Shown: one piece after another, positions 10,007 to 56,570 of the stretch
Position numbering within the stretch: position 1 is the stretch's first letter
Layout of the letters: each line of letters opens with the position of its first letter
Source: Chiloscyllium plagiosum
Taxonomy: Eukaryota
Assembly: GCF_004010195.1 (NCBI RefSeq)
Contig: NC_057719.1
Location: 16,352,892-16,416,183 of the forward strand
DNA length: 63,292 nucleotides
Direction: 5' to 3'
The notes under the pieces: model-generated
The model's input: the letters and a program-made list of their open reading frames with translations, nothing else
The model's database searches: none
What the model was told of the DNA's origin: nothing
Translations under genes and position numbers: made by a program

Positions 10007-10246
10007 GTTGTGGTTCTGTTCGCCAAGCTGGGAATTTGTGTTGCAGACGTTTTGTCCCGACTGGGTGACATCTGGGTGGCATTTATAGTGGCCGGAGGAA
10101 AGATCACAGAAGCGCTTCACAGGAGACTCCCAAGTACTGAGGATGTCACCTAGACAGGGGACGAAACGTCTGCAACACAAATTCCCAGCTCGGCGAACAG
10201 AACCACAACAACGATCACCCGAGCTACAAATCTTCTCACAAACTTT
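10007..10246 (+). mobile_element. Short Penelope-like fold-back element (inverted partial terminal repeat plus terminal repeat)
   Basis: Arms gttgtggttctgttcgcc...gcagacgt and acgtctgc...ggcgaacagaaccacaac; TSD aaactcatttttt at 9994-10006 and 10247-10259. Same terminus as the GIY-YIG element at 44630-45300. Confidence 0.8.
10134..10173 (+). ncRNA. Minimal hammerhead ribozyme motif
   Basis: gta-CTGAGGA-t-gtcacc(tagaca)ggggac-GAAAC-GTC-tgc. Confidence 0.75.
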
Positions 10247-10975
10247 AAACTCATTTTTTTTAAAACCTGTTTGCACATCTGAAGATTTACTTTGATTCAG
10301 AACAGAGGATCATGTTTCAGAATCACGAAGATCAGCAGGAGGCGACTTGATGCACCATGTTAATGCAATAGGTCCATATCACATTTACCAACGGTATTCC
10401 CATTTTTCTCTGTCCCTGTGTTGCTCAAGATTTCTTCATACATTAATTTAATCACTTCCTAAACTTCAAGATTGAATTGGGTACCTAAACAGCAACAAGA
10501 GGATGAATTATAATTGCATTATACTGATGGTAAAGAATCTCGGGGATATAATGATGCTTAGAAATACTTAAGTTCTACCATTTTAGCTTTGGCAAGCATT
10601 TTACTTTTGCCTTACTTCCTCAAATTTCTATCCAATATCCACATCTTTCTCTTCTTTAAAAACTATCAAAATTAATTGTTTTGATCAGACTGTTCATCAG
10701 TCATGGGTCATGGTTAACTTCACCATATCAGGTATGTTCGACATTGCAGTGAACCTTCTTTATATCCCAATGAAGTTTTAACTGAATTTTGCGCTGAAGT
10801 ATCTGAAGTTGCACTTAAACCTACAAGTTTCAAACTTAGAGGCAAGAGTGGCACTGGGTTGGCTTGATATTTGATATTTAGAGCAATCAGAAAATAATGC
10901 GTTGCACAAAAATGGAACAATTTTTGAATTGTTCCCTTACATCAACTGACTGATGCGTTTTGACAAATACTATAC

Positions 10976-11670
10976 TAAACTAACAAACTTAAAAGACCCA
11001 GTACAACCCATGGACAAAACCAAGTCATCTACTAAAATTCCATGCAAGGACTGCCACAAATACTACGTAGGACAAACAGGAAGAAAGTTAGCCACCAGGA
11101 TACACGAACACCAGCTAGCCACAAAAAGACACGACCCTCTCTCCCTCGTAGCCCTACACACGGANNNNNNNNNNNNNNNNNNNNNNNNNNNNNNNNNNNN
11201 NNNNNNNNNNNNNNGCCCTCCTTCAGGAATGAGGAAGGTGTGCCAAGCAGGCTAAGATAAAAGGTAGGGAGGAGGGACTTGGGGGAAAGGCGTTGGGAAT
11301 GCGATAGGTGGAAGGAGGTTAAGGTGAGGGTGATTGGCCGGAGTGGGGATGGGGGCGGAGAGGTCGGGAAGAAGATTACAGATGGGTTCTAGATAAAGAC
11401 ATGCCAGAGAATTCCTAGAGGCCTGGCACTCCAACCACAACGCCATAAACAAACACATAGATCTAGATACCATCTATCAACCCCTCAGAAAACGAACAGG
11501 AAATGACCTGACCACAAACCCCAGGAACCCCATCCAGGACAAACATATAAATAGAAAGCAGGAGACAACAGCTTCGCTTCACTTGGAGGTCACCACTGAT
11601 GATGTTACCTAGCCAGGTAATGAAACGTCTGGATATCAAACCTACAGCTCAGCGTGCAAACCTACACCCT
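10976..11670 (+). mobile_element. 5'-truncated Penelope-like element (GIY-YIG end plus terminal repeat), with an assembly gap and a nested fragment of another family at about 11215-11385
   Basis: KIPCKDCHKYYVGQTGRKLATRIHEH (GIY-YIG); TSD aaatactatac at 10965-10975 and 11671-11681. Confidence 0.85.
11593..11632 (+). ncRNA. Minimal hammerhead ribozyme motif
   Basis: cca-CTGATGA-t-gttacct(agcc)aggtaat-GAAAC-GTC-tgg; stems I and II pair fully. Confidence 0.8.
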
Positions 11671-11960
11671 AAATACTATACCGTGAAATCTTACGTCTAC
11701 AAACTCTCATACAAAATAACCCTAGGATTCCCAGAACATTTAATGCAAAGAAGAATTCTCATGCGAGAAGAAGTACAGAGAGGACTACTCCAAGAGTTCA
11801 TGTGACCATTAAAAAATCCCAACCATACCAGTTTCTTCAAATTTGCTGCATAATTGATGTTCCCCATCACTGAACCATTGTTGTGAACCTTATCTGAGAT
11901 TTCCTAAAGTGTGATGCCAGAACTGGATACTTCAGATGGGGCTGATTTAATCTAGAGGAT

Positions 11961-13370
11961 AGATTTGTTGTTAGTCTGTTCGCTGAGCTGGTAGGTTTGT
12001 TAATAGATGTTTCATCCCCTTTCTTGGTGACATCATCAGTGCTGTGTTGCCTCCTGTGAAGCGCTGCTGTACTGTTCCACTTTGAATTGACGTAATTCTG
12101 ATGAGCTATTGGTGCCAGTTCCAGTCTTTCCACTGCAGCGGTTTGTATGTTGGGTCCAGGTCAACGTATTTGTTCATGGAGTCTGACGATGCACCATGCT
12201 TCCAGGAATTCCCTTGCTGTTCTTTGTTTTGCCTGTCCTAATGTCGTTGTGGTATCCCAGTCAAACTCATGGTTCTTGTTGTCCATGTGTATGGATACCA
12301 GGGCAAGTTGGTAGTGTTGCTTGGTTGCTAGTTGGTGTTCATGGATGTGGGTTGCTAGTTGACTGCCTGTTTGTCCTACATATTGCTCAGTGCAGTCGCT
12401 GCATGGGGTTTTGTAAATTACATTCGCCCTGTGTTTAGTGGGGATTGGTTCCTTTATTCTGGTGAACGGCTATCTGAGAGTGGCTGCCAGTTTGTTGTCC
12501 TGTAAAGATCCCTAGTGGTTGGAGCAGTCTGGTTGTCAGTTCTAAAATGTTTTTAATGTATGGGAAAGTGGGCAGTCCGTTGGGGTATGTCTTGTCATCT
12601 TGATATTGTGTGTCTGCCAGGCATCTGTGGGCCAAGCTATGAAGCTATCCATTTTTGGCAAAGACTTTGTACCGGTGTTGTTCTTCCTCTCTTCGCAATT
12701 CTGGGGTGCCACAGTGTGTTGCTTGTCATCTTGATATTGCGTGTCTGCCAGGCATCTGTGGGCCAAGCTATGAAGCTATCCATTTTTGGCAAAGACTTTG
12801 TACCGATTAATGTTGTTCTTCCTCTCTTCGCAATTCTGGGGTGCCACAGTGTGTTGCTGTTCTCTTGAACAGGGTCCTTATGCAGCTTCTCATGTGGGCG
12901 TTCGGGTGGTTGCTGTTGTAGTTTCGGACAACCAAACTGCTCCAACCACTAGGGATCTTGACAGCACATAAACTGGCAGCCACTCACCAGAATAAAGGAC
13001 CCAATACCCCCTATGTGCTGTACAAATGTAATTTACAAAATCACATACAGCTGCACTAAGCACTATGTAGGACAAACAGGCAGACAACTCGTGAACCGAA
13101 TTCCTGGAAGCATGGTAATCATCCTCAGACTCCATCAACAAACACATTGACTTGGACCCAATATACAAACCCCTGCAACGGAAACAGCTGAAACAGAACC
13201 ACATCAATTCAAATCAGAACAGCAGAGCTGTGTTTCACATGGGCAACACACCACTGATGATGTCACCTAGAAAGGGGACAAAATGTCTGCCAACAAACCT
13301 ACCAGCTTGGCGAACAAACCAACAACAAATCCAACCAGCTCCCAAGCTACAGGTCTTCACAAAAACTTTA
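11961..13370. mobile_element. Penelope-like element with inverted halves (minus 11961 to about 12900, plus about 12920-13370) and an internal tandem duplication
   Basis: Decayed GIY-YIG/RT-end sequences on both strands, terminal repeats with decayed hammerheads at both ends, and a unit of about 131 bp at 12591-12721 repeated at 12722-12857. Confidence 0.8.
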
Positions 13371-13450
13371 AACCTAGTGGATTCTGTGATTTTCATACTC
13401 AGCATTTTAAAAACTAAAGATGTAGGAAAGCAAACGAAAAGAGGACTTAC

Positions 13451-13579
13451 GTTGTTGAGGTCAGGATTCTGGTTTGGTCTCTGTGGCGTACTTGGGAAAC
13501 TTTGTGTTCCACCACCTCTGTTAACACCAAGCCAACTAGTGACCCATCCAGTAACTCCACGATGCTCACTATCCAAGAG
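13451..13579 (-). CDS. trip11: TRIP11 exon (129 nt)
   Basis: ttttcactag|CTC...AAC|gtaagt; LLDSEHRGVTGWVTSWLGVNRGGGTQSFPSTPQRPNQNPDLNN; phase 0-0. Confidence 0.92.
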
Positions 13580-14564
13580 CTAGTGAAAACATAGCACAGA
13601 AGTTACACTTATAAATATGGAACCAATTCAAATGAACAGAAAATGGAAATACAAAAATATCATTTGGACATTTTCCAAAATTAAGGGCATGGAATAAGTT
13701 CTCTATTCTAAATAGTAGGGATTTAACAACATGAGAATAGATTGTAGCTTATGAATTGTTATGCAAAATAGTGAGAACAGATAAGATTATCACAGTTTAA
13801 TTTAACAAAGATTTGAATGATTCATTTGCTGATACACTATAATGATTTTTGAACTGTGTATTGGATATGCTTAACATAATTAGAATGATTTTCAAGGTGT
13901 AGGAACTTGGATAGTTTGAGAATTCAGTAGTAAATTTGAAATATAGATTGCATGCCTGAGCAGAATTCCTGTCAGAAATAGGCTAGCACCTCAAGAGTAC
14001 CACTGGTAATTAATAACTGCAAATTGTGAGCAACATCAACACTTACTGATTAGTAATAAATAGACCAACCTTTTAGAGGCAATGGTCTGAACCAATAACC
14101 AGCCAAAGAGGGGCAGCAAATCACAGCACCTCTTCAAACTTCCAAGACAGGAGTTCAAAGTATCAATTTATTACCATGCTCAATATACCGAAATTTTACT
14201 GGGTAAGCTGAGGAACCAGAATCAAAATTAATCGAGCTGAGTCAAATAGTCAACTCTTTGGGGTACAAAGGAGATGGAAGACAAACAGAAATTGCTGGAA
14301 AAACTTAGGTCTGGCAGAACCTGTGGAGAGAAATCAGAGTTAACAATTTCAGGTCTAGTGACCCTTCTCCAGAGCTCAGAAAAAGTTGGTTTTATGCAGG
14401 TGGTATGTGTAGAAGGGGGTAGTTTATAAATCAGAATTTAATAAAATACACAGCAGGATCAGCATCTAATAGGAGATACCTTCTTTAAAGAAAACAAGTT
14501 TCTTTGTAATGTTCTTGCAATCTGATGAACTGCACTTGAAAAGACAGCGACCATTTCATCCTAC

Positions 14565-14679
14565 CTCTTTAATCTCTTCTTTCTTTAACCCCAAAACATT
14601 TCCCAACAGTCTTATTGCTTCATCACGCTTGTTCTTTGGAGTATGGAAGTAACCCACAAATAAATTTCTCATCAAGACC
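14565..14679 (-). CDS. trip11: TRIP11 exon (115 nt), GRAB (GRIP-related Arf-binding) domain core
   Basis: ttattttaaag|G...GAG|gtagga; VLMRNLFVGYFHTPKNKRDEAIRLLGNVLGLKKEEIKE; phase 2-0. Confidence 0.94.
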
Positions 14680-15680
14680 CTTTAAAATAAACGGGATCTG
14701 GTTAGGAACAAGAACGGAAATGACAAATCCATACTTGAATTGGCTGGCATGCCAGACAACAGGACCTTTAATGTTACTGTTTAAAAATACACTTTACAAT
14801 TGGAAACATATTGCAAACTGAGCTGTTGAATTCAGCTGATAAAAATGTGATCAAGGTTTTGTTTTATGATCCCTGTTTCATTCTCTGTTCAATATTTGCT
14901 CCATGATATTTCAAATACAGAAGCAATTTTTAACATATATTTTCCTGTTGTGTGAAGATATGAGGTTATTGCTGACCATTTTAGCATCTCTATAAATTTG
15001 TCAGTTGTGCACGGTTGAATGAAGTTTGTGGTATGATACCGAGATATGGATAAAGATTCCCATATGCAAACTCCAAGCTGTTAAGAATTAGCTGATTGCA
15101 AGTGAGGTAACAGTACAGTACAAAAACTGGTATAAAAGGTTGGGGTGCAGTGGGAGTCAGGGGTTAAATGAGGTATCAGCTAGAATTTTCACTAATTGTT
15201 CACCCACCATGATAAAGTCTTCATGAGTGAATATTGGCTATCAGAACTCAGTTTGAATGCACTGATCCTTAAAAATGAATAGCCATTGACATTACCTGGT
15301 TGGGCTCACAAATAGAGACTATATTCTTAAACTGTTCCCCTTTGGTCTACACTCAATATAGGTAAAAATTCTTTCAGCGTCTTCCTGACGAGCCTCCTCA
15401 GGATTTTACAGGTTTCAATATGATTCTTTTAGACTCAAAATGGATATGACCAGTGTGTCTATCCTTTCCTAATAGGAAAATGCTCCCCCACCCCTGATAT
15501 CTGAATAGCTTCTAATGAAATTATGCCCTCTTTTAAATAAGATGACCAAAATGATAGAAAGCACAGATGTGACCTGTACAACTGTAGTAAAGCATCCTAC
15601 TTAGGTATCCATTCCTTTTACAATATTAAAAAAAACATTCAATTTGCCTTTCTTACTTGCTGCACATATATACTAAAGTT

Positions 15681-15862
15681 AGGAGAAAGTGACTACAGGG
15701 CTGCAGATGCTTGAGATCAGAGTCGCGAGTGTGGTGCAGGAGAATCGGCACTACAACCATAAGTCCTTCATCAGGAGTTCAACTTATGCCAGAAACACTG
15801 ATTCCCCTGCTCCTCAGATGCTGCCTGATCTGCTGTGCTTTTCCAGCATCACACTCTTGACC
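15681..15862. mobile_element. Short fold-back Penelope-terminus element
   Basis: ggagaaagtga...ctgcagatgct arm and gatgctgcctgatctgctgtgcttttccagc arm; TSD catRtatactaaagtt at 15665-15680 and 15863-15878. Confidence 0.7.
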
Positions 15863-17090
15863 CATGTATACTAAAGTTGCATGATTCAGGTATCAGGGCA
15901 CTTTGATCCCTCTGTATCTCAGAGTTGTATATCTCTTCAGTTAACTAATATGTTTGCTTGCTATTCTTTCTTCCACATTATACTTCATTTGCTAAATTTG
16001 TGTCCACTCACTTACCCTATATCTTCACTTGTTTTCAGACTCCTATGTCCTTTTCAGGATTTACTTTCCTACTATCCTTGAACAACTTTACATACAGCAT
16101 CTTTATTATGTTATTAATTTACAAATTGTAAACAGTTCAGGTCCCAGCATTGAGCCCTGTGGTCGTCCTTGTCAAATTATCTTGGCAACCCACAAATGAC
16201 TCACTTATGTTTACTGTGGGTTGGAAACGTTAGATAGGGAAAAGTTGTGCTCAGTCATAAAAAGAATGAAACACATGAAAAGACAAAGACTTAGTGATGT
16301 GCACAGCGAACACGGATGATGAATGGAACACACTGCCTGGAAGTGTGGTCGAGGTAAGTTCCATTGAGGCATTCAAGGTGGCACTGGATGATTATGTAGA
16401 TAGAAATGTACAAGGGCATAGTGAAAAAGCAAGAGACTGGCATGAGATCACAATACTCATTTGAAGAGCAGGTGCGAACATGTCTAAAAGCAAATGTTAT
16501 ATATCTAAAAGTGAGAGGTGAGAAACAAATTGCAAGTTACTCACATTTCATTTCTCTTCATTTTATTGAGTTTATCAGTCAAATGGTCATTGTCTGCATC
16601 ATACTAATTCTGTAATACTGCTTCCTGTTATCTAATCAATCCTCTGTCCATGTGAATATTACTCTCTACATCGACGAGTTTCTCTCGTTTCATTCTCACA
16701 TCAGAAATACAAGGAAATCATGCTGGGTTGTGACTGACGTGTGCAGAGGACCACAGTATTCAGATTTCAGTGATCAAAGAAAGCTTAAATATCAGTGAGG
16801 GATATGAATCAAAATGAGAATTTTAAACCAAAACTGAACATATGATTGGCCAATAAATCAGAAAATTGCCAAAACAAATTCATAAAGTTATAAAATGTAA
16901 AGGTTAGATCTAGAGTAAAACGCATTAGCCAATACTAAGTTGCTACAAATGCTAAATATGTGCAGGAGAGAAATAAAGCTATCATTTCAAATTGATGATC
17001 TTTCATTAGAACTGGAAGTCAGAGATGCAGCAGATTCAATTAGGGAAGGAGCTAAAATCTCACAGGGCAAGTCTGTTATATGATGGAGAT

Positions 17091-17394
17091 CAAGATGGCT
17101 CAGTGGTTAGCACTGATGCCTCACAGCACCAGGGTCCCGGGTTTGATTCCCACCTTGGGCAACTGTGTGTGTGGAGTTTGCACATTCTCCCCGTGTCTGC
17201 GCGAGTTTCCTCCCACAGTCCAAAGATGTGCAGGTTAGGTGAATTGGCCATGTTAAATTGCCTGTAGTGTTAGGTGTGTTGGTCAGGGGTAAATAAAGAG
17301 GAATGGCTCTGGTGGGTTGCTCTTCGGAGGGTCGGTGTGGACTTGTTGGGCCAAAGGGTCTGTTTCCACACTGTAGGTAATCTAATCTAATCTA
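17091..17394 (+). mobile_element. HE1-type V-SINE (tRNA-derived, CR1-related tail)
   Basis: A box tggctcagtgg, B box ggtttgattcc, V-domain tgtggagtttgcacattctccccgtgtctgc, and an (aatct)n tail. A truncated copy lies at about 39069-39190. Confidence 0.85.
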
Positions 17395-17737
17395 AAAAAT
17401 ATATTAAGCAACAAAGGAAAAAGCCAAATGGTGATGACAATGGTCAAGAAAGAAAAAAGGTAGATATGGAGTATGACAATTGTCCAAATGGGTATTACTG
17501 AAAGTCAAACATTTCCTAATGTTTTGCTTTTGATAATTTGCTCGGCTAAAACTGCCTCTATACCTCAAATTGAATTATCTCAGTCCTGAACAAAACAATG
17601 CATCACATAACCCAAAAATCATCCATTGAGATACTTTCTGGCTTGAGTACAGCCACATTAGAGTTGTAAGTAACTATTTTCTGAAGTGAGAACATTTTCA
17701 TAGATTTCCAAAATAAAGATGAGTATCAGATACTTAC

Positions 17738-17819
17738 TTGTCAATTCTACCTTCACTGTTATTGACTAGGTTCAGCAGTTTTCTCTGTGCATCTTCCAAC
17801 ACATCCTGTTGAGTCACAA
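17738..17819 (-). CDS. trip11: TRIP11 exon (82 nt), start of the GRAB region
   Basis: cttaactag|TT...GACAA|gtaagt; (V)VTQQDVLEDAQRKLLNLVNNSEGRID(K); phase 1-2. Confidence 0.92.
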
Positions 17820-18489
17820 CTAGTTAAGAAATAAAGATTAATGGCGTGAGGTTCCTTTTTGAGTTGGAAAACAGTCATTTAGCATCAAGAGCAAATGTTA
17901 TATGTCTAAAAGCAAATGTTATATATCTAAAAGTGAGAGGTGAGAAACAAATATTTGCAAGTTACACACATTTCATTTCTCTTCATTTTATTGAGTTTAT
18001 CAGTCACTGCCAGTGACATTTTCCACCCATGAATTCAAAAGTGAGAATGAGGATTTTACAATAAGCATTGTGAATTCAGATTAGTGTGGAAAAGTTGCTG
18101 TTTATTAAAATTATGCTGGTATTCTCCAAGAACTATCCATTCTAACATAATCTCATAAACCTCAATAATGCATTCCAGAAATTTCCTGGCAACTGACAGG
18201 AGGCTAACAAATCTATAAGTTCTAATGTTTTGTTTTCTTCAACTTCCTAATGATTAGAACATTGGTACACTGGAATTAAATTTGTATCTTAAAAGAACCA
18301 GGAGTGGTTTGCTTAACCTCACATGTCCCTAATCACTTGTGTTAAATAGCATCAATCGAGTCTTTCAACCAGCCTTGGTGCTTTAATCAACTGTGAAGCT
18401 ACACTTTTTAGGATCCCAGGATTAAATCCTGGCATGTTGTCACTGTTAGTCGCTTAGGTTTCATCGATGCTATTTCTCTGTTGATATTA

Positions 18490-19100
18490 ATTACCTGAAG
18501 AAACTGAACTGAATCGCAAACATACCATGGCTAAAACAGCAGGTCAGAAGCTGCGTAATCCTTTTTGGGTGACTCACTTCCTGACTTCCCAAACCTTGTT
18601 CCCCACCACCAGGGCATAAGTCAGGAATATGATTAAATGCTCTTCACTTTCCTAGATGAATACAGCTCTATCAAAATGCCAGAATTTTAACAGTATCCAG
18701 GACAAAGATCCTTGCTTGACAGGCATCCCACACCACTGAAAAAAAAAATCCCTCCACCAATGGAGCCAGCAGCAGTGTAAACCTACAGCAACTTGCCGAG
18801 GTTCCTTTGAAAGGACCTTCCAAACCCACAACTTTTAACATCTAAAATGACAAAGGCAGCAGATTCATACGAGGAACATAATCTGGAAGTTTACTTCCAC
18901 ACGATGCACCATCCTGACTTGGAACCATATCGTCATTTCTTCACTGTCCCTGGGTCAAAATCCTGAAACACCCTACTGAAAAGCACTGCGTGTACACCTC
19001 CAGAGAGGCTACAGAAATTCAACAGAGAAAGCTTAACATCATTCCCAGGGCAATTGAGGAGGGTATTAAATGCTGGTCCCACCAGTGGTGAAGACTCAGA
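18490..19100 (+). mobile_element. Non-LTR retrotransposon 3' fragment (CR1/L2 group, second family); related copies at about 21100-21820, 30430-31250 and 37400-37620
   Basis: Shared motifs among the copies (acaaggcacaaatcaggagtg, ccaggacaaagcagc, caccatcctgacttggaa). Confidence 0.7.
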
Positions 19101-19994
19101 GTAGAGAAATATACCCCCGCAAACTTGATGGCCAGGACAACAAAAAGAATGGGTGTGAAATTTTAGCAGCATTCCTGATTGATAAAATACAGAGAAAAAT
19201 ACAGAAGAGTTCCCACTTGTGCTGAAAATCAAAATATATGCCAGCCTAAACAGCAAGGAGAAGGGAAAGTTACCATTTTAGTTTTCTAGGCTGGTTTAGT
19301 TCAATATGAATTAAATCAGACATGCGGCACCATTCTGAGCTCCATATTTAGTTTGGCTCATTCTATTTTCCTCTCCTTTCTAACCCCTGCACCCACCCCC
19401 ACCTCAGCTTTTTTTTGGCTGGTCGACTGTTTGTGTTTCAATGAATATTTTACCACTGAGTAATCAAAGTCGGATCAGAAGCCAAGGGCATGTATAAATT
19501 ATATAGGAAGAAAGAATGAAGTTATGTAGGAAACATCACTGGCAAAGAGTACCTAAAACACATGAAAATCCAATATCATGGATTAAATGGAACTATTTGT
19601 ATTCAATCATGTTCAGTCAAACAAAGAAGTGATCAAATGTAGTTGACCCATTCAATATGAATGCAATCAAACCATTGTTAGTTACAAAAAAAGTTAACAA
19701 ACAATTTGAACTGTTATTCCCTTGAAATATCTACACAGTGTAACCTAGTTTGAATCACTTCAACTGGGGAATTGCTGAAAATCTGAAGTCAACTTTGCTG
19801 GTTCACCTATTTCTCCACATAAAAATGTTTTTATTTCCAAACAAAATAATTAATTCTGGTCAAAATTAGGCGTTTCACATTTCAGGAACAGAAACAAAAA
19901 GTTTCTCAAACATGAAAGTATTTCACCGTGTTCTGCTCCACTTCCTTTTGTCATACATTAGTAGTGCCAGTTTACAAAAACAAAAAAAAAAACA

Positions 19995-24361: not shown

Positions 24362-24461
24362 CTTGCTTTTTAAGATCTTCCAGTTGCTCCTCTTTAAGGT
24401 CCAATTGTTCAGCTAGTCTTGATGCAGAATCTAGAGCCTCATTTGCTTCTTTTAAATGTTG
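24362..24461 (-). CDS. trip11: TRIP11 exon (100 nt)
   Basis: ctattgcag|CAA...CAAG|gtaatg; [33 protein letters not shown]; phase 0-1. Confidence 0.93.
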
Positions 24462-44590: not shown

Positions 44591-44629
44591 TTGGAAGTGT
44601 TGGAGGCTAGTACAATTGCAACATTTGTA

Positions 44630-46423: not shown

Positions 46424-46590
46424 TACAGGTAGTTCTTCTATAACATGATGGTTGTGTTCTTGTGCGACCCTGCACTATATAAAAATCACACGATAAAATA
46501 GCATTTACTGTTGGCGATGCAATCGTATTCTAGCCAACACACATTTTAAAAGTTTGTACTTTAGAAACAGCATCCCTTATTCATCAACTG
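46424..46590 (+). mobile_element. Tigger/pogo-like MITE fragment
   Basis: TA followed by a caggtagttcttctataac terminus and CpG-decayed internal repeats; the right end is not evident. Confidence 0.45.
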
Positions 46591-46686
46591 TGTAACACGT
46601 GCAGACAATACTAAACTTGAATGAATTATGAACTGAGAGGATAACAGTGTGGAACTCCAAAAGGAGATTGACAAATTGGTGGAGTG

Positions 46687-46880
46687 CAGGAAGCATCCGA
46701 GGAGCAGGAAAATAGACGTTTCAGGCAAAAGCCCTTCATCAGGAATCATTCCTGATGAAGGGCTTTTGCCCGAAACGTCGATTTCCCTGCTCCTCGGATG
46801 TCGCCTGACCTGCTGTGCGTTTCCAGCACCACTCTGATGTAAACTCTGGTTTCCAGCATCTGCAGTCCTCACTTTTGCCA
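46687..46880. mobile_element. Fold-back element with two opposed hammerhead cores, inserted in CR1
   Basis: gacgtttcaggcaaaagcccttcatcagg (minus core) and cctgatgaagggcttttgcccgaaacgtc (plus core); degenerate TSD attggtgRagtg. Confidence 0.8.
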
Positions 46881-47793
46881 CATTGGTGAAGTGGGTGAAT
46901 ACGTGGCAGATTAGGCACAATGCAGTGAACTGTGACCCATTGCATTTTGGTAGAAAGAACATTAGGTTGTGGGAGCAGAGGAACCTGGCTGCATAAGTAA
47001 ACAGATCATTGAAGACATCAGAACAGGAGAAGAACAGTTACTAAAGAAAATAAAAAAATGCAGTGCCCTCAGATTTACGACTGAGGCACGAAATAGAAGG
47101 ACAGACTATTGATGTTGAACTTGCTAGACCTCAATCAAAATGCTGCTGTGGGTGCCACAATCTAGGAAAGACGTGAATGTATTGGAGAAAGTGCAAAAAT
47201 AATTTACACGGATGGTTCCAGGAAAGAGAAACTTCAATATGAGGATAGATTGAATAAGTTGGGGCTGTTCTCCTTATATAAGAGACAACTGAGAGGATTT
47301 TGAGTAGAGGTTTTCAAAATCATGAGTCATCTGGATAGAATAGATAGGGAGAAGATGCTCCTGCTCATTTAAAGAAGCAAAATGAGTGGGTATATGTTTA
47401 AAGAGATGTACTAAAGAAGCAAAAGGTGATGTGAGAAATAAAATGGTTTTCACATAACGAATTGTTAGGGTATGGAATCTCTTGCCTGGAAATGTGGTGG
47501 AACCAGGTTCAATTGAGCAGCACACATATGATAAGGCAGCATTCAAGGAGAAATTGGATGACTATTTTGGTAGAAATGTTGTACAAGGGTGCAGGGAATA
47601 AAAACAGTAGATTGACACTAAGAACCAGAGCTGACACGATGGGCTAAATGGCCTCCTCCTGCACTGTAACAATTCTGTGAAATCATACCCTAAATCTATA
47701 TCACCTGGTGTACGAAGAGGACAAATTAAGCGATTTAACATCGATAATAAACATTAGTTGAAGCCTTATTGTAGGAAAAGTCATTACTTCTAC

Positions 47794-47987
47794 CTGGCAT
47801 TTTCTACAGCAGAAGATGAGGATGCTAACTTTTCCCCCAGAAAAGTAGCCCTCTTCCTCAGCTCGGCCTCTCGGTCCTCAGCTGCCAAGGCCTCTTTGGT
47901 GTATGACTCTTCCATCTCAATTAAATGTTGTCGCAATCGCTGCAAATCCTGGTACAAACGCTGCTCCTTATCACGTGTGTGCTGCAA
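47794..47987 (-). CDS. trip11: TRIP11 exon (194 nt)
   Basis: cttatttcag|TTG...GCCAG|gtagaa; [46 protein letters not shown]...SSSAVENA; phase 0-2. Confidence 0.93.
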
Positions 47988-48890
47988 CTGAAATAAGAGA
48001 CAAGACATTGCCATCACCATCCCCAGGTGGTTGGTAATTTTATGAATAATGCTTTCAAGGCCCATGAGAGATAGGCAATAATTAGCCCAGTTAGCGATGC
48101 CCTCATCACAAGAATGAATTAAAACATCATTTTCCAAGATAATAACTGACATGGAAATCACGGAATATCAATTGGAACATAATAAAATACCAGAACTCAC
48201 TGACAGTGAGACTAAAGGAACTTTTTTTAAAAGTGCAGGTGATAACAAGCATGTAGCTCTCTTCTTCAGATAAATGTTCCGTTTTGGTAAGAGGAACATG
48301 GAACTTTAACATAAACTAAAGACTTCAATTCTAAAAAACGTGCAGAAGCAGAACAAAGAGGTAAATGCCCCTCAGTTAATGAAGGCGACAGGGAGAGGTT
48401 GAGAGTAGTTAATAATGCATACAGTATCCTAATTTATTAATATGGGCATATAGCATAAAAGCAGAGGTTATGTTGAATTTGCATAACCATATGGCAAAGG
48501 AAACAGAAAGGGAATGGTTTCATGGATCCTTTTGTGGCTTAATATTGAAATGTGAAAACATTTTTGACATAAAAGGGTTTTTATTCAAACTAGGTTTTAA
48601 ACTGATCTAGTTTTGAAACTTAACATATGTAACAGGCCTATGAATATTAGTTTATTACTATTGAGCTTCAATTTATTATTAGGTAACAACGCTGGGTGGA
48701 GTCACACAATGATCTTGTAAAAATAAACTGATGGTCCTAGAGAGCATTCAGACCCTAAATACTGGGAAATTTGGGATGATGGTTCACCACTAGGAGATTA
48801 AACTATACACTGACAAGATGTAGTAATTGTCCTTGGGTGTTACCTTGCCTTGGGAGAGATCTGTAGTGTTGGCATGCCAAGAAAGAAAGT

Positions 48891-49078
48891 GAGAAAGTGA
48901 GGACTGCAAATGCTGGACATCAGAGTTGAGAGCGAGGTACTGGAAAAGCACAGCAGGTCAGGCAACATCTGAGGTGCAGGAGAATCCAAGGCTCATTCCT
49001 GATGAAGGGCTTATGCCCAAAATGTGGATTCTCCTGCTCCTTGACCTGCTGTGCTTTTCCAGCACCACACTCTCAATA
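48891..49078. mobile_element. Fold-back Penelope-terminus element, decayed
   Basis: gagaaagtgaggactgc... arm, cctgatgaagggcttatgccc core and gacctgctgtgcttttccagc arm. Confidence 0.7.
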
Positions 49079-50789
49079 CTAAGAAAGACAAGTTATTATA
49101 AAAGGGACAATCTTATAAACTAATTAGCATGTTAAGAATTAATCAGAAATCATCCTTAAGATGTCCATTACTTTTAAAGAAACTAATCAGGACTGGGGAA
49201 TACAGTATGCAGCAAATCCAAGGCTGAACACGACCTGTTCATATGTTAGCAAGCCAATTACAGTTAAGTACGTCTGTGATCATTTACACTGGGTAATGGC
49301 TAGCAAGGTTTAATAAGTTGTGATTTTTAGTGTTTTAGTGCATGCCAGTAAGCAGAATAGAATAGACTAATGCCCAATCAATTAGATCAAGAATTGGTAT
49401 TGCAAAGTGGATATAGTGAAAATCACTGCTTTTGTTACCTATTATTTCTTTAGGAATCACTATGAAAAAAAAATTAGTAATTACACAGAACTGTCAAAAT
49501 ATATTTGTTCCTGGAATTGGTCTTGTAATTTATCAAATTAATTAAACCTTTAGCATGGGTTAATTCCCAAAATCTTATGTCAGATTCTAGCAATCTGTCT
49601 TTTGCTTCACCAGATCTACTGAGCCAATTGAAGTTACCCTGAAGAATTTCCAATTCCAATGAAATGCATGCTTATCAATAATGTTTTATGCCATTAACCT
49701 GGGCACTTAAGCATTAAAGATCCTGATATGTAATATACAGGAGTTGTTTTTACTCACTATCTTCTCCTAGTCCCACACACGTTGAGCTGACTGGTAATTT
49801 TTGTTTAACACCTTCTACAATTATCAGCTGGGCAACACACAATTGCATCAGATGTCATCATTTTCAGCCTGTTATCTACTAAGGCTAACATTAAGCTATG
49901 GAGAGTTGCGAAAATATAAATGATGAAGAACAGCATACAGAAAACACCTTCCAAACTAAACTAAAACAAATCAATGGAAAGTACAGAACCCATAGTTGGA
50001 CTACAGACACCCTCGAAGTTCACATAGCATAGCAAGATATAGAAAGAGGCATTAAAAAGCTGAAGAAATGAGATACATTGATTCCCAGAGATTGATGGCT
50101 TGGATACTGACAATTAATATTTAAAACAGAACTTTTCATTTTTATTCTCTATCACTCACAAATGTGTGTATAAAGAAATCCCAAAAGGTATGGGTAGGGA
50201 GGCTTAGAAAGATTCTGACAGACTTGAATGCGCCCTTCCTATTGCAAAGCTTTTAAGTCTCTGCACAGATGCTTGCCACAATTCAACTGCATGTAGAACA
50301 TAAAAGAAAAGCACAACAGGGAAGATTGAACTCCAGCCTTCAACTTAAATCTGATTCACAATAGCCAGTGTTCCAATTTCAAGCCTGCAGTAGCAACCAT
50401 GTCAACATCAGGAGTTTCTAACATGAACGTAATTAGACTTTGCATCATATTCACAATGGGTGACTCACTTTCCAATACAGCAATAGCTTATGTGATGGTA
50501 CACTTTGGTTTACGTTGACACCAGGTCATGACCTGCAACAGAAGTTTGAGCACTTAACACATATACTTCTTCAATTTCTCAAAGGGTGGTCTAAGCCAGG
50601 CTTGATAAGAATCTTTTGGTTGTTTTATATCACCAATCAACACATCAACAATTATAATTAGATTCACCTATGCAATTAAAGAACTTATTTTTACATAACG
50701 ATACTAAGGAAAATATGGAACCTAATCATGGTGAGTCATATATTTCACTTACACTCAGATAACTAATAGTTTATTTTGCCAACTACCTT

Positions 50790-51470
50790 GTTGAAGCTCT
50801 CTCTCCTGCTCTCTCTGCTCAGAGCTCATGAACTGCTCTGTCACCGGACATTTTCCTCAGACGGCTCTACTGCTTCCCTTCCTCCTTCCTGTCAAGTCAA
50901 ATCTTCCTCGTGGTCCTCCAGTGTGGTTTTAATCTCCATCCTGATCTCTCATCTTGTTATTCCCACCTTGCCCTAACTACTACTCACCTTTCCTTGAAGA
51001 TTATTTAATTGCAAACCACATCCCCTACATTATCAAGTTTTTGAATATTTGATTTTCCTCTTGCGTCGCATTATCTTTGGTTACTTCTAATCACGCACTA
51101 TTTCCTTTTTTTTCAATCATAATTTCACTGAAGACATTCATCCATGCAACCTTACTCCAAACTCCTGCCTCCAAACTCCCCAATGTCTCCAAAACACCAG
51201 GATTCATGCATATCTCTTCATGAGCTTTCTGCCTATCTAAAAGTTCTTAAAACATTCCTAACCAAATGTATGAACAACATCCTCAGTAACCAACACAAGA
51301 TGCGTTATCCCTAATCATTCTGTCTGAAAACTTCGACATGGTTCACTGCCTTAACTTGCTCAAACAGTTCTTCACCATTATCCAGTTAAGTGGGACCTTC
51401 CTTTACTTCTCTTTGCACAACTCATACCTAGCCAATCGTACCCAGATCAGGTTCAGCAAAGGCTTCCCTT
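50790..51470 (+). mobile_element. Ancient L2-like LINE RT remnant
   Basis: Pyrimidine-rich decayed motifs (cttcgacatggtt, tcatacctagccaatcgtacccag). Confidence 0.4.
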
Positions 51471-51733
51471 TTTACCTGTGTTAAAACTTACTGGGGAGCA
51501 TTCTTAAAATTGAGCCCTGGAGTCATCATAAGAGTTAAAAGTTGTTAAATTAAGGAACTCCCTGTACTTGTTTATCTATCTTTTAGACTTAGATAGACAG
51601 AAAGGATGGAACAGGTTTCTACACTTAACAAGAATTACTACTTATTACAAATAAACAGATTCAAGCTAAATTAAGCAATTTTGAACCATCAGAAAATAAC
51701 TCCTACTAATTAAAACTAACCACTTTTACTAGA

Positions 51734-52030
51734 GTGGGGGAGTCTAAAACTGGAGGACATAAGTTTAACGTGAGAGGGGAAGTATTTAAGAAGGACCTGA
51801 GGGGTAACATATTCATGCAGAGGATGGTGCGTGTATGGAATGAGCTGCCAGAGGAAGTGACAAAGGTTGGTACAATTATATGTAAAAGGAAGCTGAATGG
51901 GTCTATGAATAGAAAGAGTTTAGAAGGATATAGACCAAATGCTGATAAATGGGATTAGGTTAGATTCAGATGGTTGGTCAGCACAGGAAATTTGGACTTA
52001 AGGGTCTGTTTCCAAGCTGTATGACTTGAA
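51734..52030 (+). mobile_element. CR1 3' fragment
   Basis: GESKTGGHKFNVRGE..DLRGNIFMQRMVRVWNELPEEV and tail. Confidence 0.85.
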
Positions 52031-53025
52031 GACTCTATACTACCTGGCCATTAGTCCACAGATCAATCAGCAACTTGCTTCTAGTTGATTCTCCATTTGT
52101 ACACATAGCGCTTGGCTCCAGCTTGTCTGCTAACCACCAACTACTGTTTCAAGCAGAAACACTAAGGCAGCATTTGCAAAGAGTATCAGGTTACTTGTTT
52201 TCAAAAAAAGTGTACCAATCCCTCAACAATCCTTGGTTTTTAATACAGTTCATAAGTAAAATGACAGAAAAATACAAGGTCTTTACACCTACTTTGCCAC
52301 TTTAGAAGTCTCGGAATAAAGAATTCTCGGACCCTTCTTGAAGGCCAAGCACCCCATTGTTAAAAAAATCTGACAACAGAGTCAGATTGCACATGTGCAT
52401 TAGTAGAAGTTTGACACCAGAAGAAATGCTCATGATTGAGATGCTTAATATCATTATGACACTAGGACAATGTCCAAAGGAAGAAGATGCAACACAGCTC
52501 CCTAAGTTTATAGCAATATTGACACAAAGTTAATTGGCTTGATAACAGCGTCATTCTCATCCCACCACCATATAAGGCCATTTGGACCAGAGCCATTGCA
52601 ACATGTTTGATCCATGACTGTGATGTTCGGTTGTGCAGGACAGATCTTTCTCAGACATGAAGAGTTTGAGTTACTTTGCCAATTTGGAATGTGGCTGGTT
52701 CACAATCTAGTTAAAGTGAACAAAATGCTCATAGAAGGTGAAAGGAATGCAAGCACCATGTGTACTGATGTCAAGTGCTGCACTGGCTGAATCAGACAAC
52801 ACTCATTCAGTCAATCTATATAGCTGTCAGTACAAGTGGCAGAAGTTAAATCAGCACTGTGAACTAATGTTTATCAGGAATTAGATACAACTCAAAACCA
52901 CTGATCTAGAGAAGAATTAGATTCAAGCCCTTGATTTGCAATTTGCCACATCTTTCAGTTGTGCTCAGCACACTTTACAACAATTGTGAGGCTAAAATTT
53001 AATGACTACTTCAATAATACATTAC

Positions 53026-53166
53026 CTCATTCACTAATGCAGAGTTTTCCATCTGTTTCTGTTTGAGGGCCAGCATTACTTGGTCTCTCTCATGCTGAAA
53101 CATCCCAGCTTGCTCTTGCATTGATTTCACTTCATTCAGCAGTTGATTTAACTCACCAGTCTTTCC
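53026..53166 (-). CDS. trip11: TRIP11 exon (141 nt)
   Basis: tttgaag|GGA...GAG|gtaatg; [47 protein letters not shown]; phase 0-0. Not in the ORF track; read from the sequence. Confidence 0.93.
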
Positions 53167-53448
53167 CTTCAAATTATGAAATAGAGCTGATCAATTTCAT
53201 AATGAAGCTCAAACTTAGCAGGACAGAAGGCAAGTTTATTTTAAAAATACATCAAACACCAGGACTGTAATGCTTTTGTTCGCTATGTTAAAACAAAAAG
53301 TTGGTAAGTTGAGCCACTTAGTCATGTCTAGACTTCTATTTTTTTCAAATACCAACAATACCAATTATATGAACTTTCTTCATGTTTTTAGAATGTCTAT
53401 TATATTGCTGATATAGGAATTTCAAGTCTTGGGTATTACTGGGAAAAG

Positions 53449-53629
53449 CTGAAAATGTGTTGCTGGAAAAGCNNNNNNNNNNNNNNNNNNNNNNNNNNNN
53501 NNNNNNNNNNNNNNNNNNNNNNNNNNNNNNNNNNNNNNNNNNNNTGCTGCCTGACCTGCTGCGCTTTTCCAGCAACACATTTTCAGCTCTGATCTCCAGC
53601 ATGTGCAGTTCTCACTTTTTCCTCGAAGA
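53449..53629. mobile_element. Fold-back element with an assembly gap at its centre
   Basis: Arms agctgaaaatgtgttgctggaaaagc and gcttttccagcaacacattttcagct; TSD tattactgggaaaag at 53434-53448 and 53630-53644. Confidence 0.8.
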
Positions 53630-55249
53630 TATTACTGGGAAAAGACATGTTTTGTTGAAGTTTTGCATTTGCACTCATTTATCCACACAGTACACCTGTT
53701 TCAAATCAACAAAATAGGGGCTGCCATTCGCTGGCTCCTTTCTCAGGACATTGCCTTGCTCAAGTATACAGTCATCAGGCCTGGTTTATAATTTAATTTA
53801 AAAAAAAGAACTGTGGATGCTGAAGGGGAGGAGGGTCACTGGATCTGAATCATTAACTCTGCTTTTTCTCCACGTTGCTGCCTGACTTGGTGAGTTTCTG
53901 CAGCAATTTCTGTTTTTGTATAATTTGACAAAGATTGACTGTGAACTGCCATTCTGTATTAATGGGCATATTCACCATGACAATGCCTCTATCATCAGAC
54001 TCCATTTTGTCAATCAATCAATCAATTTGCACATTATACTCGTGCTACATACAGAACTGGTATTTTCGCAAGTGACTTTATGAGTGCAAAGCAAAATGAC
54101 ACAACAAAAATGTTTATTTTCAGCAATACCCAATTCCTGCATGACCAAGTGACAATTTTAAATCTCATTTGACTAAGAGTTTTTATTCCCCTCCTCCCGC
54201 CAAGCATTTCAATCACAGGAAGCATTCACGAGCATCTTCAATACAAATGGGGGCGGAAAGTATTGAGATGCAAGAGACGGGGTTCTTCTTGAAATCACTT
54301 CAACATCCAACCAAAGAAACTATTCTATGGATGGGAAAACAAAGATCTCAAATAGTAACATGGTTTCCAGGTCAATTTTCAGACCAATGTGAAACTGCAG
54401 AAAACAGACAATCCTTTTCATTAACATAACTGGAACCATCTAATAGGAAAACAGAAATAACTTTACAATTGTAATTAGGTGATAAAATTTGCAAGTCTTT
54501 CAAATGAAGAACTGTGACTTATCTTTGACAAAGTAAATGCCGAGTCACCTCAAGTTCAATGCGGTCATAGAGAACAAAATACTTGCTTCTTTAGAGGCAT
54601 TACGTATAGAAGAAAGGAGGGATAAGAGACTTAAAAACAGAAACAGAAAATACTGGAAATACTCAGCACATTAGACAGCATTTGCTGAGAGAAAAACTAA
54701 GTTATCATTTTAATTCCTACACATATTCAGAAAATTTAATTTGGTCAAGAAATATCATTCTTGACATATTTAACAAATGCATAAATGCAAGACAATCTGG
54801 ATGAGGAACAGCATAAAACGTAGAGCTTAATGTTGGCTCCATGAGCACAAGGATCAAATCCATGTTGGAGGTGTCAAGTATATAAAGAAAAGTTATTTTG
54901 CAATCTTATGTAGCCAGAACTGAGGAGAAGATGGAATAAGAAAAAACAACAAATTAGGTTATTTAAATCAGATATGGAAAATGCAAGAAGAAAGTAAGTT
55001 TGTACACACTGGGCAACAAAGGATGTTGGGAGTGTTCCATTTTCCATAAAGTTTTCAGGAGTCCCCTCTCCTTACTAAAAGATTGGATGGAAAGAATTGT
55101 CAATAATACAGAAAATAAATGATGCACATTAACAAGAATTTAAAAGGCCCAAAATCTAGCCAATTAGGAGAAGACTGAACTTACCCAATTACAACACAAC
55201 CCAGAAAGTCTTTAAGTCTGTGTCTGATGGCTCATTGGTCTATCCTCCT

Positions 55250-56050
55250 CTAGAGGAGGCCAGATTGTGAGCGGCGAATGCAGTAGTCTAGATTGTGTGA
55301 AGTGCAGATAAAGTACTGCTTCACCTGAAAGGTGCGTTTGAGTCCTTGGATACAGAGGAGGGACGATGTGAACGGACAGGTGTTAAGTCTTCTGCTGTGA
55401 GGTTGTTGGGAGGGGGGGGGGGGGTTTGTAAGTGAAGGGAGAGTGGACCAGGGATTGGAGAAACTACATTGGGGAAACGAACACAGATTGGGTGACCGCT
55501 TCACAAGACAACCCTGAATTTCCAGTTACCTCCCACTTCAACACAAGTGTTCTGTTCCCTGGCCAACATCTGTGTCTCAGGCTTGCTGCTGTGCTCCAAC
55601 GAAGCTCAGTGCAAGCTGGAAGAGCAGCACCTCATTTTCCGCTTGGGGATTTTACAGTCTTCCAGACTCAATATTGAGCTCAATAGCTTTAGGGCTTGAG
55701 CTCTTCCATGTCCTGACCCCAATCCCACAAATCGGGTCTTGTTATCACAATCTGCTATTATACAACACCCACTGTTAGCCTTTAACATCCCCATTAATAG
55801 CTATTCGCCCTCCTAGCCAGATCGTTATCTACTTCTTTGTCTATCCAACTGTTCTTCTCTCTCTTTGGGCTCTGTTCCCACATATCGTTTACTCCTTACC
55901 CCAGTCTATCTTCTGCATATAAACTGACATTTTCCTAGTGACCATCAGTTCTGAGGAAGGGTCACACGACCCGAAACTTTAACTCTGATTTCTCGCCACA
56001 GATGCTGCCAGACCCTGCTGAGCTTTTCTAGTAATTTCTGGTTTTGTTTC
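55250..56050. mobile_element. Penelope-like element remnant (inverted piece plus GIY-YIG end and terminal repeat with hammerhead at 55947-55984)
   Basis: YIGETN motif on the plus strand; agtt-CTGAGGA-a-gggtc(acac)gaccc-GAAAC-ttt-aact. Confidence 0.75.
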
Positions 56051-56350
56051 AGCTCACTGCTTGCTCCATGAGCCCAAGGATTAAATCCAAGTTGGAGGTG
56101 TCAAGTATATGAAGAAAAGTTATTTTACAACCTTTTAAGCTGCCAGAAACTGAAAAGAAGTTGGAATGAGAACAAAAGTCAATAAATTAGGTTATTTAAG
56201 TCAGATAGGGATAATGCAATAAGAAAGCAAGTATGCACTTATTGGGGCAAAGGATGTTGCAAGTGTTACATTTTCCGTACAGTTTTCAAGAGACCCCTCT
56301 CCTCACCAACAGGAAGATTGGTTGTAAATAATTGCCATTAACACAGAAAA

Positions 56351-56570
56351 GGAGAAAGTGAGGACTGCAGATGCTGGGGATCAGAGCTTAAAAATGTGTT
56401 GCTGGAAAAGTGCAGCAGGTCAGGCAGCATCAAAAGGAGAAGGAGAATCGACGTTTCGGGCATAAGCCCTTCTTCAGGAATTCCTGAAGGGCTTATGCCC
56501 GAAACGTCGATTCTCCTTCTCCTTTGATGCTGCCTGACCTGCTGCGCTTTTCCAGCAACACATTTTTAAG
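56351..56570. mobile_element. Young 220-bp fold-back element with opposed hammerhead cores
   Basis: Near-perfect inverted arms of about 90 bp centred on ggaattcc; exact 15-bp TSD cattaacacagaaaa at 56336-56350 and 56571-56585. Confidence 0.88.

Follow-up and report, generated by a model that had tools for sequence, protein, structure and literature searches.

The window analysed, a stretch of 63,292 nucleotides from the shark Chiloscyllium plagiosum (contig NC_057719.1), carries part of the gene TRIP11 on its minus strand (Table 1). The gene extends beyond the window, to window position 106608, and is expressed and spliced: the junction 59923/60807 is present in public contigs. A preliminary description had proposed that several lineages of Penelope-like elements (PLEs) left minimal hammerhead ribozymes, many of them decayed, in the introns of one housekeeping gene, and the exon map bears this out, the gene being TRIP11. 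The seven motifs cited there are all present at the coordinates given, six of them antisense to TRIP11 and the seventh inside a long inverted-repeat hairpin, and the estimate of 15 or more intact or decayed motifs compares with 34 motif-plus-tail copies recovered by profile search, 7 of which match the full core pattern. All motifs are intronic, bar a decayed tail (6073-6142) past the last coding exon.

Table 1. Features of the window, in window coordinates.
Feature	Position	Strand	Basis
TRIP11, coding exons 10-21 of 21	8688..61019	-	protein P0001 100% identical, named TRIP11 by sources; exon map
Family A (Poseidon-type) minimal hammerhead, core intact, antisense to TRIP11; tail to ~10234	10134..10173	+	strict scan, profile search
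Family A truncated inverted arm, head-to-head with 10134	10001..10072	-	profile search
Family B (Poseidon-type) minimal hammerhead, core intact, 7-bp stem II, after GIY-YIG C-terminal remnant	11593..11632	+	strict scan
Family B copy, stem III decayed (ACAT), downstream of GIY-YIG remnant	11964..12042	-	profile search
Family B copy, G12 lost, downstream of GIY-YIG remnant	13252..13357	+	profile search
Solo family D copy, decayed, 11-bp flanking duplication	20780..20863	-	profile search
Deleted family C arm, head-to-head with 38757 motif	38676-38746	-	profile search
Family C (Neptune-type) minimal hammerhead, stem III AGCU, triplet CUA	38757..38791	+	strict scan
Nested D / C / D copies, decayed	39488..39689	both	profile search
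Family C copy, duplication within stem II, ~200 nt upstream element UTR	40182..40277	+	scan, profile search
Family B copy, one core change (CCGAUGA), after GIY-YIG remnant	41190..41291	-	scan
Poseidon-type ORF remnant (RT-region end and GIY-YIG, internal deletion), upstream of 45221	44640..45175	+	translation
Family A minimal hammerhead, core intact; tail to ~45305	45221..45260	+	strict scan, profile search
Family D (Neptune-type) head-to-head pair; core-intact motifs 46752 (+), 46742 (-)	46684..46877	both	sequence, fold
Family D head-to-head pair, decayed	48932..49075	both	profile search
GIY-YIG-region C-terminal remnant (EQHLIFRLG...), 250 nt upstream of family E motif	55622..55699	+	translation
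Family E minimal hammerhead, stem III palindrome broken; tail to 56042	55947..55984	+	sequence, fold
Family D head-to-head pair; intact 56446-56482 (-), deleted core on plus	56353..56572	both	sequence, hairpin fold
Family E head-to-head pair, decayed	61417..61603	both	profile search
Further decayed E copies	14283, 36389, 38542, 45507, 53829		profile search
D tails	6073, 15783, 29055, 53545, 62960		profile search

The motifs of the window are genuine minimal type-I hammerheads, for which self-cleavage is predicted. In the window, 5 motifs pass a strict descriptor that asks for the exact core, 3 or more uninterrupted bp in each of stems I and II, and a stem III that is palindromic or a stem-loop; 30 dinucleotide shuffles gave 0.1 on average. 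The seven full-core motifs have the type-I topology with core CUGANGA ... GAAA ... UH. In a catalogue of 212 motifs, all common types carry the extra nucleotide between A9 and stem II and the G10.1-C11.1 pair; the first stem II pair (10.1-11.1) of families A and B is G-C in 48 of 62 rows and G-T in 12. Stem III is a loopless palindrome across families A to E, as had been described, ACGU in A, B, D and E and AGCU in C, but at 55947 it reads ACTT; this copy, listed at first among the examples, is decayed, because it has ACTT in place of the palindrome and TTT as its triplet, intact family E copies having ACGT and GUU. The motif at 10134 likewise stands, though with stem I gta/tgc rather than gca/tgc. 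Family A has an A-G mismatch inside stem II, and stem I of the D motifs at 46749 and 56446 consists of 2 contiguous pairs, then U-U, then A-U.

The count of five families holds only if the Poseidon sub-lineages A and B, which share ~71% identity across 73 nt, are split; profiles yield four. Covariation, which had been described for the stems, is two-sided at one stem I pair of the A/B alignment (G-C 36, T-A 13, C-G 6, in all 55 of 62 rows, 2 of the rows shown resembling false positives), the next position outward pairs in 2 of 62, and the rest is mostly replacement of whole stems between lineages; within D there is none, stem II being invariant except for decay. The Rfam search that had been suggested as a check returned no hammerhead match at E<=5 in the window. 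Its best matches were miRNA models, spurious artefacts of the inverted pairs. Predicted stem I probability in the monomer is at most 0.19 in 8 of 8 folded motifs, and the active-dimer fold is predicted to lie 6-14 kcal/mol above the best cofold for the six motifs modelled.

Reverse transcriptase (RT) and/or GIY-YIG sequences upstream identify the motifs as PLE hammerheads of several lineages, as proposed: one Poseidon-type (A/B) and three with Neptune-type features (C, D, E), the clade names being taken from motifs, not from a tree. They lie at the PLE pLTR/3' end, and in one C locus (L248) an ORF reads through from the tail. The C motif lies downstream of RT at 14 of 16 RT-anchored loci, and RT, linker, YIGET and motif are collinear in C loci; the D motif follows a Neptune-type RT on the same strand at 11 of 19, the other 8 entering assembly gaps. 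An A motif lies downstream of an RT ORF in locus L034 (Pfam RVT_1, E 3.4e-11) and a D motif immediately after a GIY-YIG domain in L016 (E 4.9e-05), the only two domains to pass Pfam cut-offs. Family E is tied only to a GIY-YIG remnant, and no RT was seen with it; the EQHLIFRLG peptide of that remnant also follows a weak GIY-YIG match in L061. Within the window, a weak GIY-YIG match (10950-11162, E 0.006, below cut-off) lies upstream of the 11593 motif, and the ORF remnant upstream of 45221 has no Pfam match at 0.01. A CX4CxxC linker is present in C and D elements and was not seen in A; in the form CX2-5CxxC it lies between RT and endonuclease in two D loci (L220, L022) and, in frame, in 7 of 16 C loci, and was not seen for E. 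The CX2-5CxxC linker is common to Neptune and Nematis. None of 36 RT-anchored stretches holds an intact full-length element, all long copies having gaps or stop codons. Same-strand motifs 3.1-3.2 kb apart flank an RT in L225, which is gapped, and in L248, where the 5' pLTR is interrupted, neither with an intact ORF. The order of RT then GIY-YIG is that of EN+ PLEs, Neptune and Penelope/Poseidon (PMC8557442; PMC3846280), with the CX2-5CxxC linker in C and D, not A.

Genome-wide, the core pattern, applied without a pairing test, matches 221,209 times against 4,512 for the control, or ~217,000 core-intact motifs net, a density of one per 16 kb. Neighbour pairs among 388 copies are 79 head-to-head, 11 direct and 5 tail-to-tail: inverted pairs take in ~40% of copies, and the same-strand tandem geometry that a cis dimer needs is rare among neighbours. 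In the window, each arm of the 46684..46877 pair starts 4-6 nt before the core, and the 56353..56572 pair is bounded by a 14-bp target-site duplication (56339-56352, 56573-56586). Duplications of at least 8 bp flank 18 of 41 solo short D copies against 0.68 in shuffles; 12 of the 41 have upstream sequence in common with another copy, so that the set may include inverted arms or duplicates that escaped recognition. The 3' ends are bimodal, in two clusters 30-40 nt apart. Of 140 D copies, 31 (22%) have lost the catalytic G12 by mutation, a rate equal to that at other CpG sites of the motif (22-28%), so that the copies look neutral.

The class and its arrangement have been known since 2014 from the metazoan PLE minimal hammerheads described by Cervera and de la Pena (PMC4209133), which share the exact core, the extra nucleotide before stem II, G10.1-C11.1, the palindromic 15.2-16.2 and the short stem I. 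There, too, a genome holds many sequence families, most motifs stand alone at the remains of truncated elements, and there are opposite-strand pairs; what is added here is scale and the distribution of 5' ends. The counts given there, ~4,000 for coelacanth and 9,000 for Xenopus, compare with ~217,000 net core matches in the shark under a different descriptor, ours having no pairing test, and unlike those motifs stem I is only 2 bp long in the main shark D subfamilies. Neither the passages used here nor supplement file 2 of that paper name a shark, though supplement file 1 may list one; we found no report on shark PLE hammerheads, allowing that the supplements of the Li et al. 2026 preprint may list a shark. 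EN+ PLEs (PMC8557442; PMC3846280) likewise show 5' truncation, copies inverted head-to-head, a 30-40 nt tail at one end and target-site duplications; unlike these, with pLTRs of at least 200 bp, the commonest shark product is a unit of 100-140 nt or an inverted pair of 150-250 nt.

In young D copies, collected from 1.15 Mb of unselected DNA (n=113, a few references with inverted arms inflating the bin at -30 and beyond), 30 5' ends fall at -6..-1 relative to the core (p=5e-14), 4 at -29..-13 and 4 at the cleavage site (+26..+30). By eye, the first 100 matches listed in a tail-anchored search have 44 ends at -6..-1, 2 at -21..-7 and 2 at +28. E behaves similarly, with 11 of 30 ends at -5..-1; those of C are broad (8 of 30 at -14..-4), and A has no pile-up, 19 of 25 copies reaching at least 30 nt upstream. 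Ends are not enriched at the cleavage site in D (p=0.26), nor in C, E or A. That so many D and E copies begin 1-6 nt before the core and not at the cleavage site suggests reverse transcription of uncleaved RNA. Literature listings on truncation, start sites and solo pLTRs included none on a 5' pile-up at the motif. A splice acceptor was considered as its cause in D and rejected, there being no AG directly before -5 and no common upstream exon in truncated copies. E does have AG at -4/-3, where an acceptor is still a possible cause.

The nearest experimental system is the Anolis Poseidon element PAc (Frangieh et al. 2024, PMC11167929). In the sections of that paper drawn on here, the hammerhead likewise lies at the pLTR/ORF start and two RT start sites define a tail of 30-40 nt; insertion proceeds mainly from uncleaved RNA, RNA-seq ends are lacking at the cleavage site, and cleavage, which is unnecessary in vitro, is there shown to be protein-assisted, the shark motifs being known from sequence alone. 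No 5' pile-up before the core, such as that of shark D and E, is described in those sections. The role of the PLE hammerhead was called unclear by Craig et al. 2021 (PMC8557442). By extension from the lizard element, the element protein would prime reverse transcription ~90-140 nt downstream of the core and copy through the uncut hammerhead. For D and E, synthesis would often halt 1-6 nt before the core; the likeliest reason is that the template RNA itself starts there, for which the chances seem about even, and two such cDNAs back to back would yield the inverted pairs. Selection would be confined to the hammerheads of master elements, which likely cleave, protein-assisted or as a dimer, at another step.

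Carried further, and put tentatively, at a little under an even chance, this becomes a proposal that places the transcription start of shark Neptune-type elements on the hammerhead itself: an initiator, TCATTC / TCAGTT with its A at -4, would lie in the 5' strand of stem I. Since RT would prime only ~100-140 nt downstream, most retrotransposition events would be abortive run-offs that leave an uncleaved hammerhead plus tail, single or back-to-back, giving ~2x10^5 core-intact and roughly 10^6 total motifs; the 5' ends would be a fossil record of this, and the hammerhead would not process the template in vivo. A downstream promoter element (consensus RGWYV) was not seen at +28 from the proposed D start. 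In D. virilis Penelope, unlike the start proposed for the shark, the start site lies ~120 nt before the end of an intron that abuts the hammerhead.

Other causes fit as well, because the pile-up falls where stem I has its 5' edge and where D also has an ATT like the preferred cut site of the endonuclease. The same elements could pile up through integration chemistry or RNA structure, RT dropping off at a protein-bound or folded hammerhead or the cDNA annealing by microhomology to an ATT-like overhang, a serious competitor that we nevertheless think rather less probable than a start site: the D and E ends match the 5' strand of stem I (-4..-1), D carries at -4..-2 the ATT preferred by the lizard PAc endonuclease, and junctions of inverted pairs often show 2-3 nt of microhomology, but E has AGTT, not ATT, at the equivalent position, both arms of the inverted pairs end in the same register, the scarcity of ends at -21..-7 among the first 100 matches listed makes a one-sided wall, as from a template end, and structure should stop RT on entry, on the 3' side, where there is no peak.

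A second alternative makes the 130-nt units a non-autonomous family that propagates itself, a SINE-like partner of Neptune transcribed from an internal promoter and re-copied. It would account for the very high copy number, the target-site duplications, a 5' start fixed at a hexamer that resembles an initiator, and the retention of a putative protein-bound tail. We consider it unlikely: sub-family letters are common to short and long copies, with no sign of a distinct short lineage, the positions of the 3' and 5' ends are variable, and single-cell polyA reads cover the unit in both orientations, 95% continuing into unlike sequence, as passengers in host transcripts would. On locus L151 these reads form no pile of molecule ends, in a library type that cannot map 5' ends. 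Editing of the 56353-56572 hairpin was indistinguishable from paralog reads.

Non-LTR retrozymes, too, are high-copy non-coding repeats with type I hammerheads related to PLE pLTRs, reaching up to 120,000 copies in axolotl, in the portions used of Cervera and de la Pena 2020 (PMC7229834) and the Li et al. 2026 preprint, and have been reported from one chondrichthyan; they form tandem arrays, with mostly canonical ribozymes and circular RNAs, whereas the shark copies are dispersed, minimal and inverted, have direct neighbours 11 times among 388 copies and grade into PLE ORFs. Head-to-tail arrays with a hammerhead per unit were not found in the window, and a reading of the motifs as tandem retrozymes making circular RNAs, largely excluded on this ground, is very improbable.

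The data do not support anything special about the host gene: the genome average predicts 3.9 core-intact motifs where the window has 7 (Poisson p=0.096), and the TRIP11 span has 26 on the plus and 21 on the minus strand (p=0.56). Two core-intact copies (46742, 56477) lie on the sense strand of this expressed and spliced gene, but each is within a head-to-head pair predicted to fold into a long hairpin (-114 and -161 kcal/mol) that hides the motif, both have a 2-bp stem I, 46742 lacking one of its pairs, minimal monomers failed to cleave in published work, and decay is neutral genome-wide, so that active domesticated ribozymes affecting TRIP11 RNA processing are scarcely credible; self-cleavage of TRIP11 pre-mRNA is not supported, the motifs being predicted not to cut.

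In all probability, then, the motifs are minimal hammerheads in the pLTR/tail of four PLE lineages, present as short, neutrally decaying insertions in TRIP11 introns, likely copied from uncleaved RNA and predicted not to cut the host pre-mRNA. Rfam overlooks such motifs, which could easily be mistaken for miRNA hairpins or MITEs, and their inverted pairs are a large potential source of intronic double-stranded RNA. If transcription does start on stem I, the ~2x10^5 core-intact motifs would be the highest count in the literature compared. The 5' ends of thousands of genomic copies serve as an in-vivo readout, pointing to templates copied past the uncut site and ending just before the core, and such copying would explain the abundance of solo minimal hammerheads.

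All seven hammerhead motifs singled out in the preliminary description are present where it placed them, as inspection of the sequence confirmed, though the Rfam hammerhead search proposed there found no hammerhead match in the window. A strict type-I descriptor matches the window 5 times, against 0.1 per shuffled window, and profile HMMs built from genomic copies count 34 copies of motif plus tail, more than the 15 or more intact or decayed motifs anticipated; 7 of the 34 match the full core pattern. Several lineages are indeed represented, but the profiles resolve four families rather than five, A and B merging (Table). The stems fared less evenly: stem I of the 10134 motif contains a G-U pair, stem II of family A pairs except for an A-G mismatch, the palindromic stem III is lost in the 55947 copy, and stem I of the D motifs has only 2 contiguous pairs.

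Table. Features of the window and its flank (window positions unless a handle precedes them).
Feature	Positions	Remarks
Family A/B (Poseidon-type)	10134, 45221, 11593, plus decayed copies	profile family
Family C (Neptune-type)	38757, 40182	profile family
Family D (Neptune-type)	46749, 46742, 56446, plus others	profile family
Family E (Neptune-type)	55947, plus others	profile family
Head-to-head pairs	46684-46877, 56353-56572	spurious miRNA precursor matches in Rfam, below gathering scores
Inverted arms	26317-26433, 27041-27157	117 nt each, separated by 607 nt, with 98% complementarity; resembles a young MITE or the remnant of a DNA transposon
Presumed CR1-like LINE remnants	27360-27893, 35065-35607, 43929-44661, 62745-63292	Pfam RVT_1 match, E 2.2e-09, at 44254-44661
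Second, older LINE-like family	18584-18949, 20966-21663, 30639-31214, 37448-37786	
Open frame, 521 aa	L020:3-1565 (same genome, ~8.5 kb left of window)	by eye like LTR-retroelement RT/RNase H
Assembly gaps	~11163-11220, 53470-53544	122 N together, each at a PLE junction

The proposed origin in Penelope-like elements (PLEs) is borne out by reverse transcriptase (RT) and/or GIY-YIG sequence upstream of the motif in every family, and each testable defining feature of PLE minimal hammerheads was found. Retrozyme identity was rejected, the tandem arrays looked for being absent from the window. GIY-YIG C-terminal peptides precede the A/B motifs in the window, and an A/B motif follows the RT ORF (RVT_1, E 3.4e-11) in L034, a stretch of the same genome outside it; no cysteine linker was seen in A/B elements, as in Penelope/Poseidon. 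In RT-anchored loci the motif lies downstream of RT on the same strand in 14/16 for C and 11/19 for D, the remaining 8 running into gaps, and both carry a CX4CxxC linker, a feature of Neptune and Nematis according to Craig et al. (2021, PMC8557442). For family E the sole linkage found is a GIY-YIG end. Clade names here are based on motifs, not on a tree. No intact full-length element was recovered, assembly gaps interrupting most long copies; in L248, another outside stretch, the ORF start is entered by read-through from a C tail, and another C motif follows 3.2 kb downstream.

At 39488-39689 in the window and in the outside stretches L248 (278-545), L232, L247 and L250, PLE copies have inserted into a different PLE family's pseudo-LTR (pLTR) or tail (D in C; C in D or A), which suggests that PLE ends are preferred targets. 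In L224 (3465-3556) a young solo D unit interrupts a different D element within its RT region. The D and E tails have a common stem-loop, GATGCTGCC...CTGCTG...TTTTCCAGCA, although their hammerhead stems differ; in Neptune-type RNAs it is a candidate element for protein binding.

Between lineages the core is fixed and the stems are entirely replaced. Within families, the covariation claimed holds at one A/B stem I pair (G-C 36, T-A 13, C-G 6 of 62), the neighbouring position pairing in only 2/62, but fails in D, whose stem II is invariant and whose subfamilies vary at position 7, in loop II and in the tail. The general base G12, within a CpG, is mutated in 22% of 141 D copies and the remaining CpG sites of the D motif in 22-28%; because G12 decays like other CpGs, we infer that the motif is kept in master elements and decays neutrally after insertion. 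In the most amplified D subfamilies stem I carries a U-U mismatch (58/69 long copies), and in a rarer one it is a perfect 4-bp stem (7/69); weaker ribozymes may thus spread better.

To map 5' ends we anchored on the tail alone, counting from core nucleotide C3, with predicted cleavage at about +28. For D, 113 of 207 tail hits were used (1 unaligned, 13 at gaps and 80 under 88% identity left out): 30 of these young copies end at -6 to -1 (p=5e-14), 4 at -29 to -13 and 4 around the cleavage site (p=0.26). By eye, among the first 100 of the matches listed for a D tail pattern (of 42,110), 44 end at -6 to -1, 2 at -21 to -7, 26 at 0 to +11, 4 at +12 to +27 and 2 at +28, and 22 are longer; scripted, 16 of the first 30 matches listed end at -6 to -1. 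Family E behaves like D (11/30 at -5 to -1) and C gives a broader cluster (8/30 at -14 to -4); family A shows no pile-up, 19/25 copies extending at least 30 nt upstream. Loose ends of RNA reads and contigs aligned on a D copy cluster at -4/-3, and are genomic junctions inside host transcripts.

This wall falls at the A of TCATTC in D and of TCAGTT in E, both of which fit the initiator consensus, TCAKTY, and we put the chances as even that it is where transcription of the element RNA starts. Internal promoters are known in PLE pLTRs (Schostak 2008, PMC2377424; Arkhipova 2013, PMC3846280). Other causes would also fit: the wall coincides with the stem I edge, and in D it stands at ATT, resembling the endonuclease's preferred site. 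Had the hammerhead produced the 5' terminus of the RNA that was copied, copies should begin at +28; such copies are not enriched, which suggests copying of uncleaved RNA.

Same-family neighbours at most 400 nt apart form 79 head-to-head pairs (inverted, motifs adjoining), 11 direct and 5 tail-to-tail, the head-to-head pairs holding 156/388 copies. The 3' ends of D, C and A copies form two clusters 30-40 nt apart, matching the tail of PAc, the Poseidon element of Anolis, whose origin Frangieh et al. (2024, PMC11167929) place in RT starting at two internal sites. Duplications of at least 8 bp flank 18/41 solo short D copies, against 0.68 in shuffles, and one of 14 bp flanks the second pair in the Table; together with the 3' clusters, these duplications identify the short units as products of insertion and not as what deletion left behind.

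Exact family patterns match the genome 53,899 (D), 4,417 (A), 4,393 (C) and 306 (E) times, each with 0 for the reversed control. A family-free core pattern, in which stem pairing plays no part, gives 221,209 matches against 4,512 for its control; nearly all of the first 100 among the matches listed, inspected by eye, fall into one of the four families. In unselected blocks totalling 1.147 Mb, window and flanks included, 388 copies were counted (338 per Mb), of which 75 have an intact core, extrapolating to roughly one million copies genome-wide. Since gaps fill most long PLE copies across the genome, long copies and inverted pairs are at least as numerous as counted here. Earlier surveys give ~4,000 motifs in coelacanth and ~9,000 in Xenopus, counted with a descriptor other than ours (Cervera and de la Pena 2014, PMC4209133), and, for axolotl, as many as 120,000 retrozyme motifs of the canonical type (Cervera and de la Pena 2020, PMC7229834).

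The ORF at 56885-59965 is 100% identical to a C. plagiosum protein that its sources name TRIP11; the gene's coding exons, on the minus strand, extend from window position 106608 down to 8688, two of them joined across a proper intron in public contigs. Seeding of one housekeeping gene by several lineages stands (TRIP11, four families). With 7 core-intact motifs against 3.9 expected at the genome mean, and 26 plus to 21 minus copies in its span, TRIP11 has neither enrichment nor strand bias. Of the 7 cited motifs, six lie on the plus strand, antisense to its pre-mRNA. In predicted folds monomer stem I probability is at most 0.19, the active dimer lies 6-14 kcal/mol above the best cofold, and the two sense core-intact copies form with their inverted arms hairpins of -114 and -161 kcal/mol. 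Earlier work reports no cleavage by minimal hammerhead monomers and little by dimers (Cervera and de la Pena 2014), and for PAc a ribozyme that requires protein, with cleavage dispensable for insertion (Frangieh et al. 2024). Cutting of TRIP11 host RNA by intronic motifs appears unlikely on this analysis. The two head-to-head pairs would, as modelled, form long hairpins in TRIP11 pre-mRNA that, as with inverted Alus, may act as substrates for editing or as dsRNA substrates.

The motif class, the PLE minimal hammerhead, is already known. Our literature search found no report of shark PLE hammerheads or of a 5' pile-up at the motif, weak evidence given its limited coverage; a retrozyme preprint (Li et al. 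2026) sampled one chondrichthyan. What most merits a specialist's attention is how many copies there are and where their 5' ends map.
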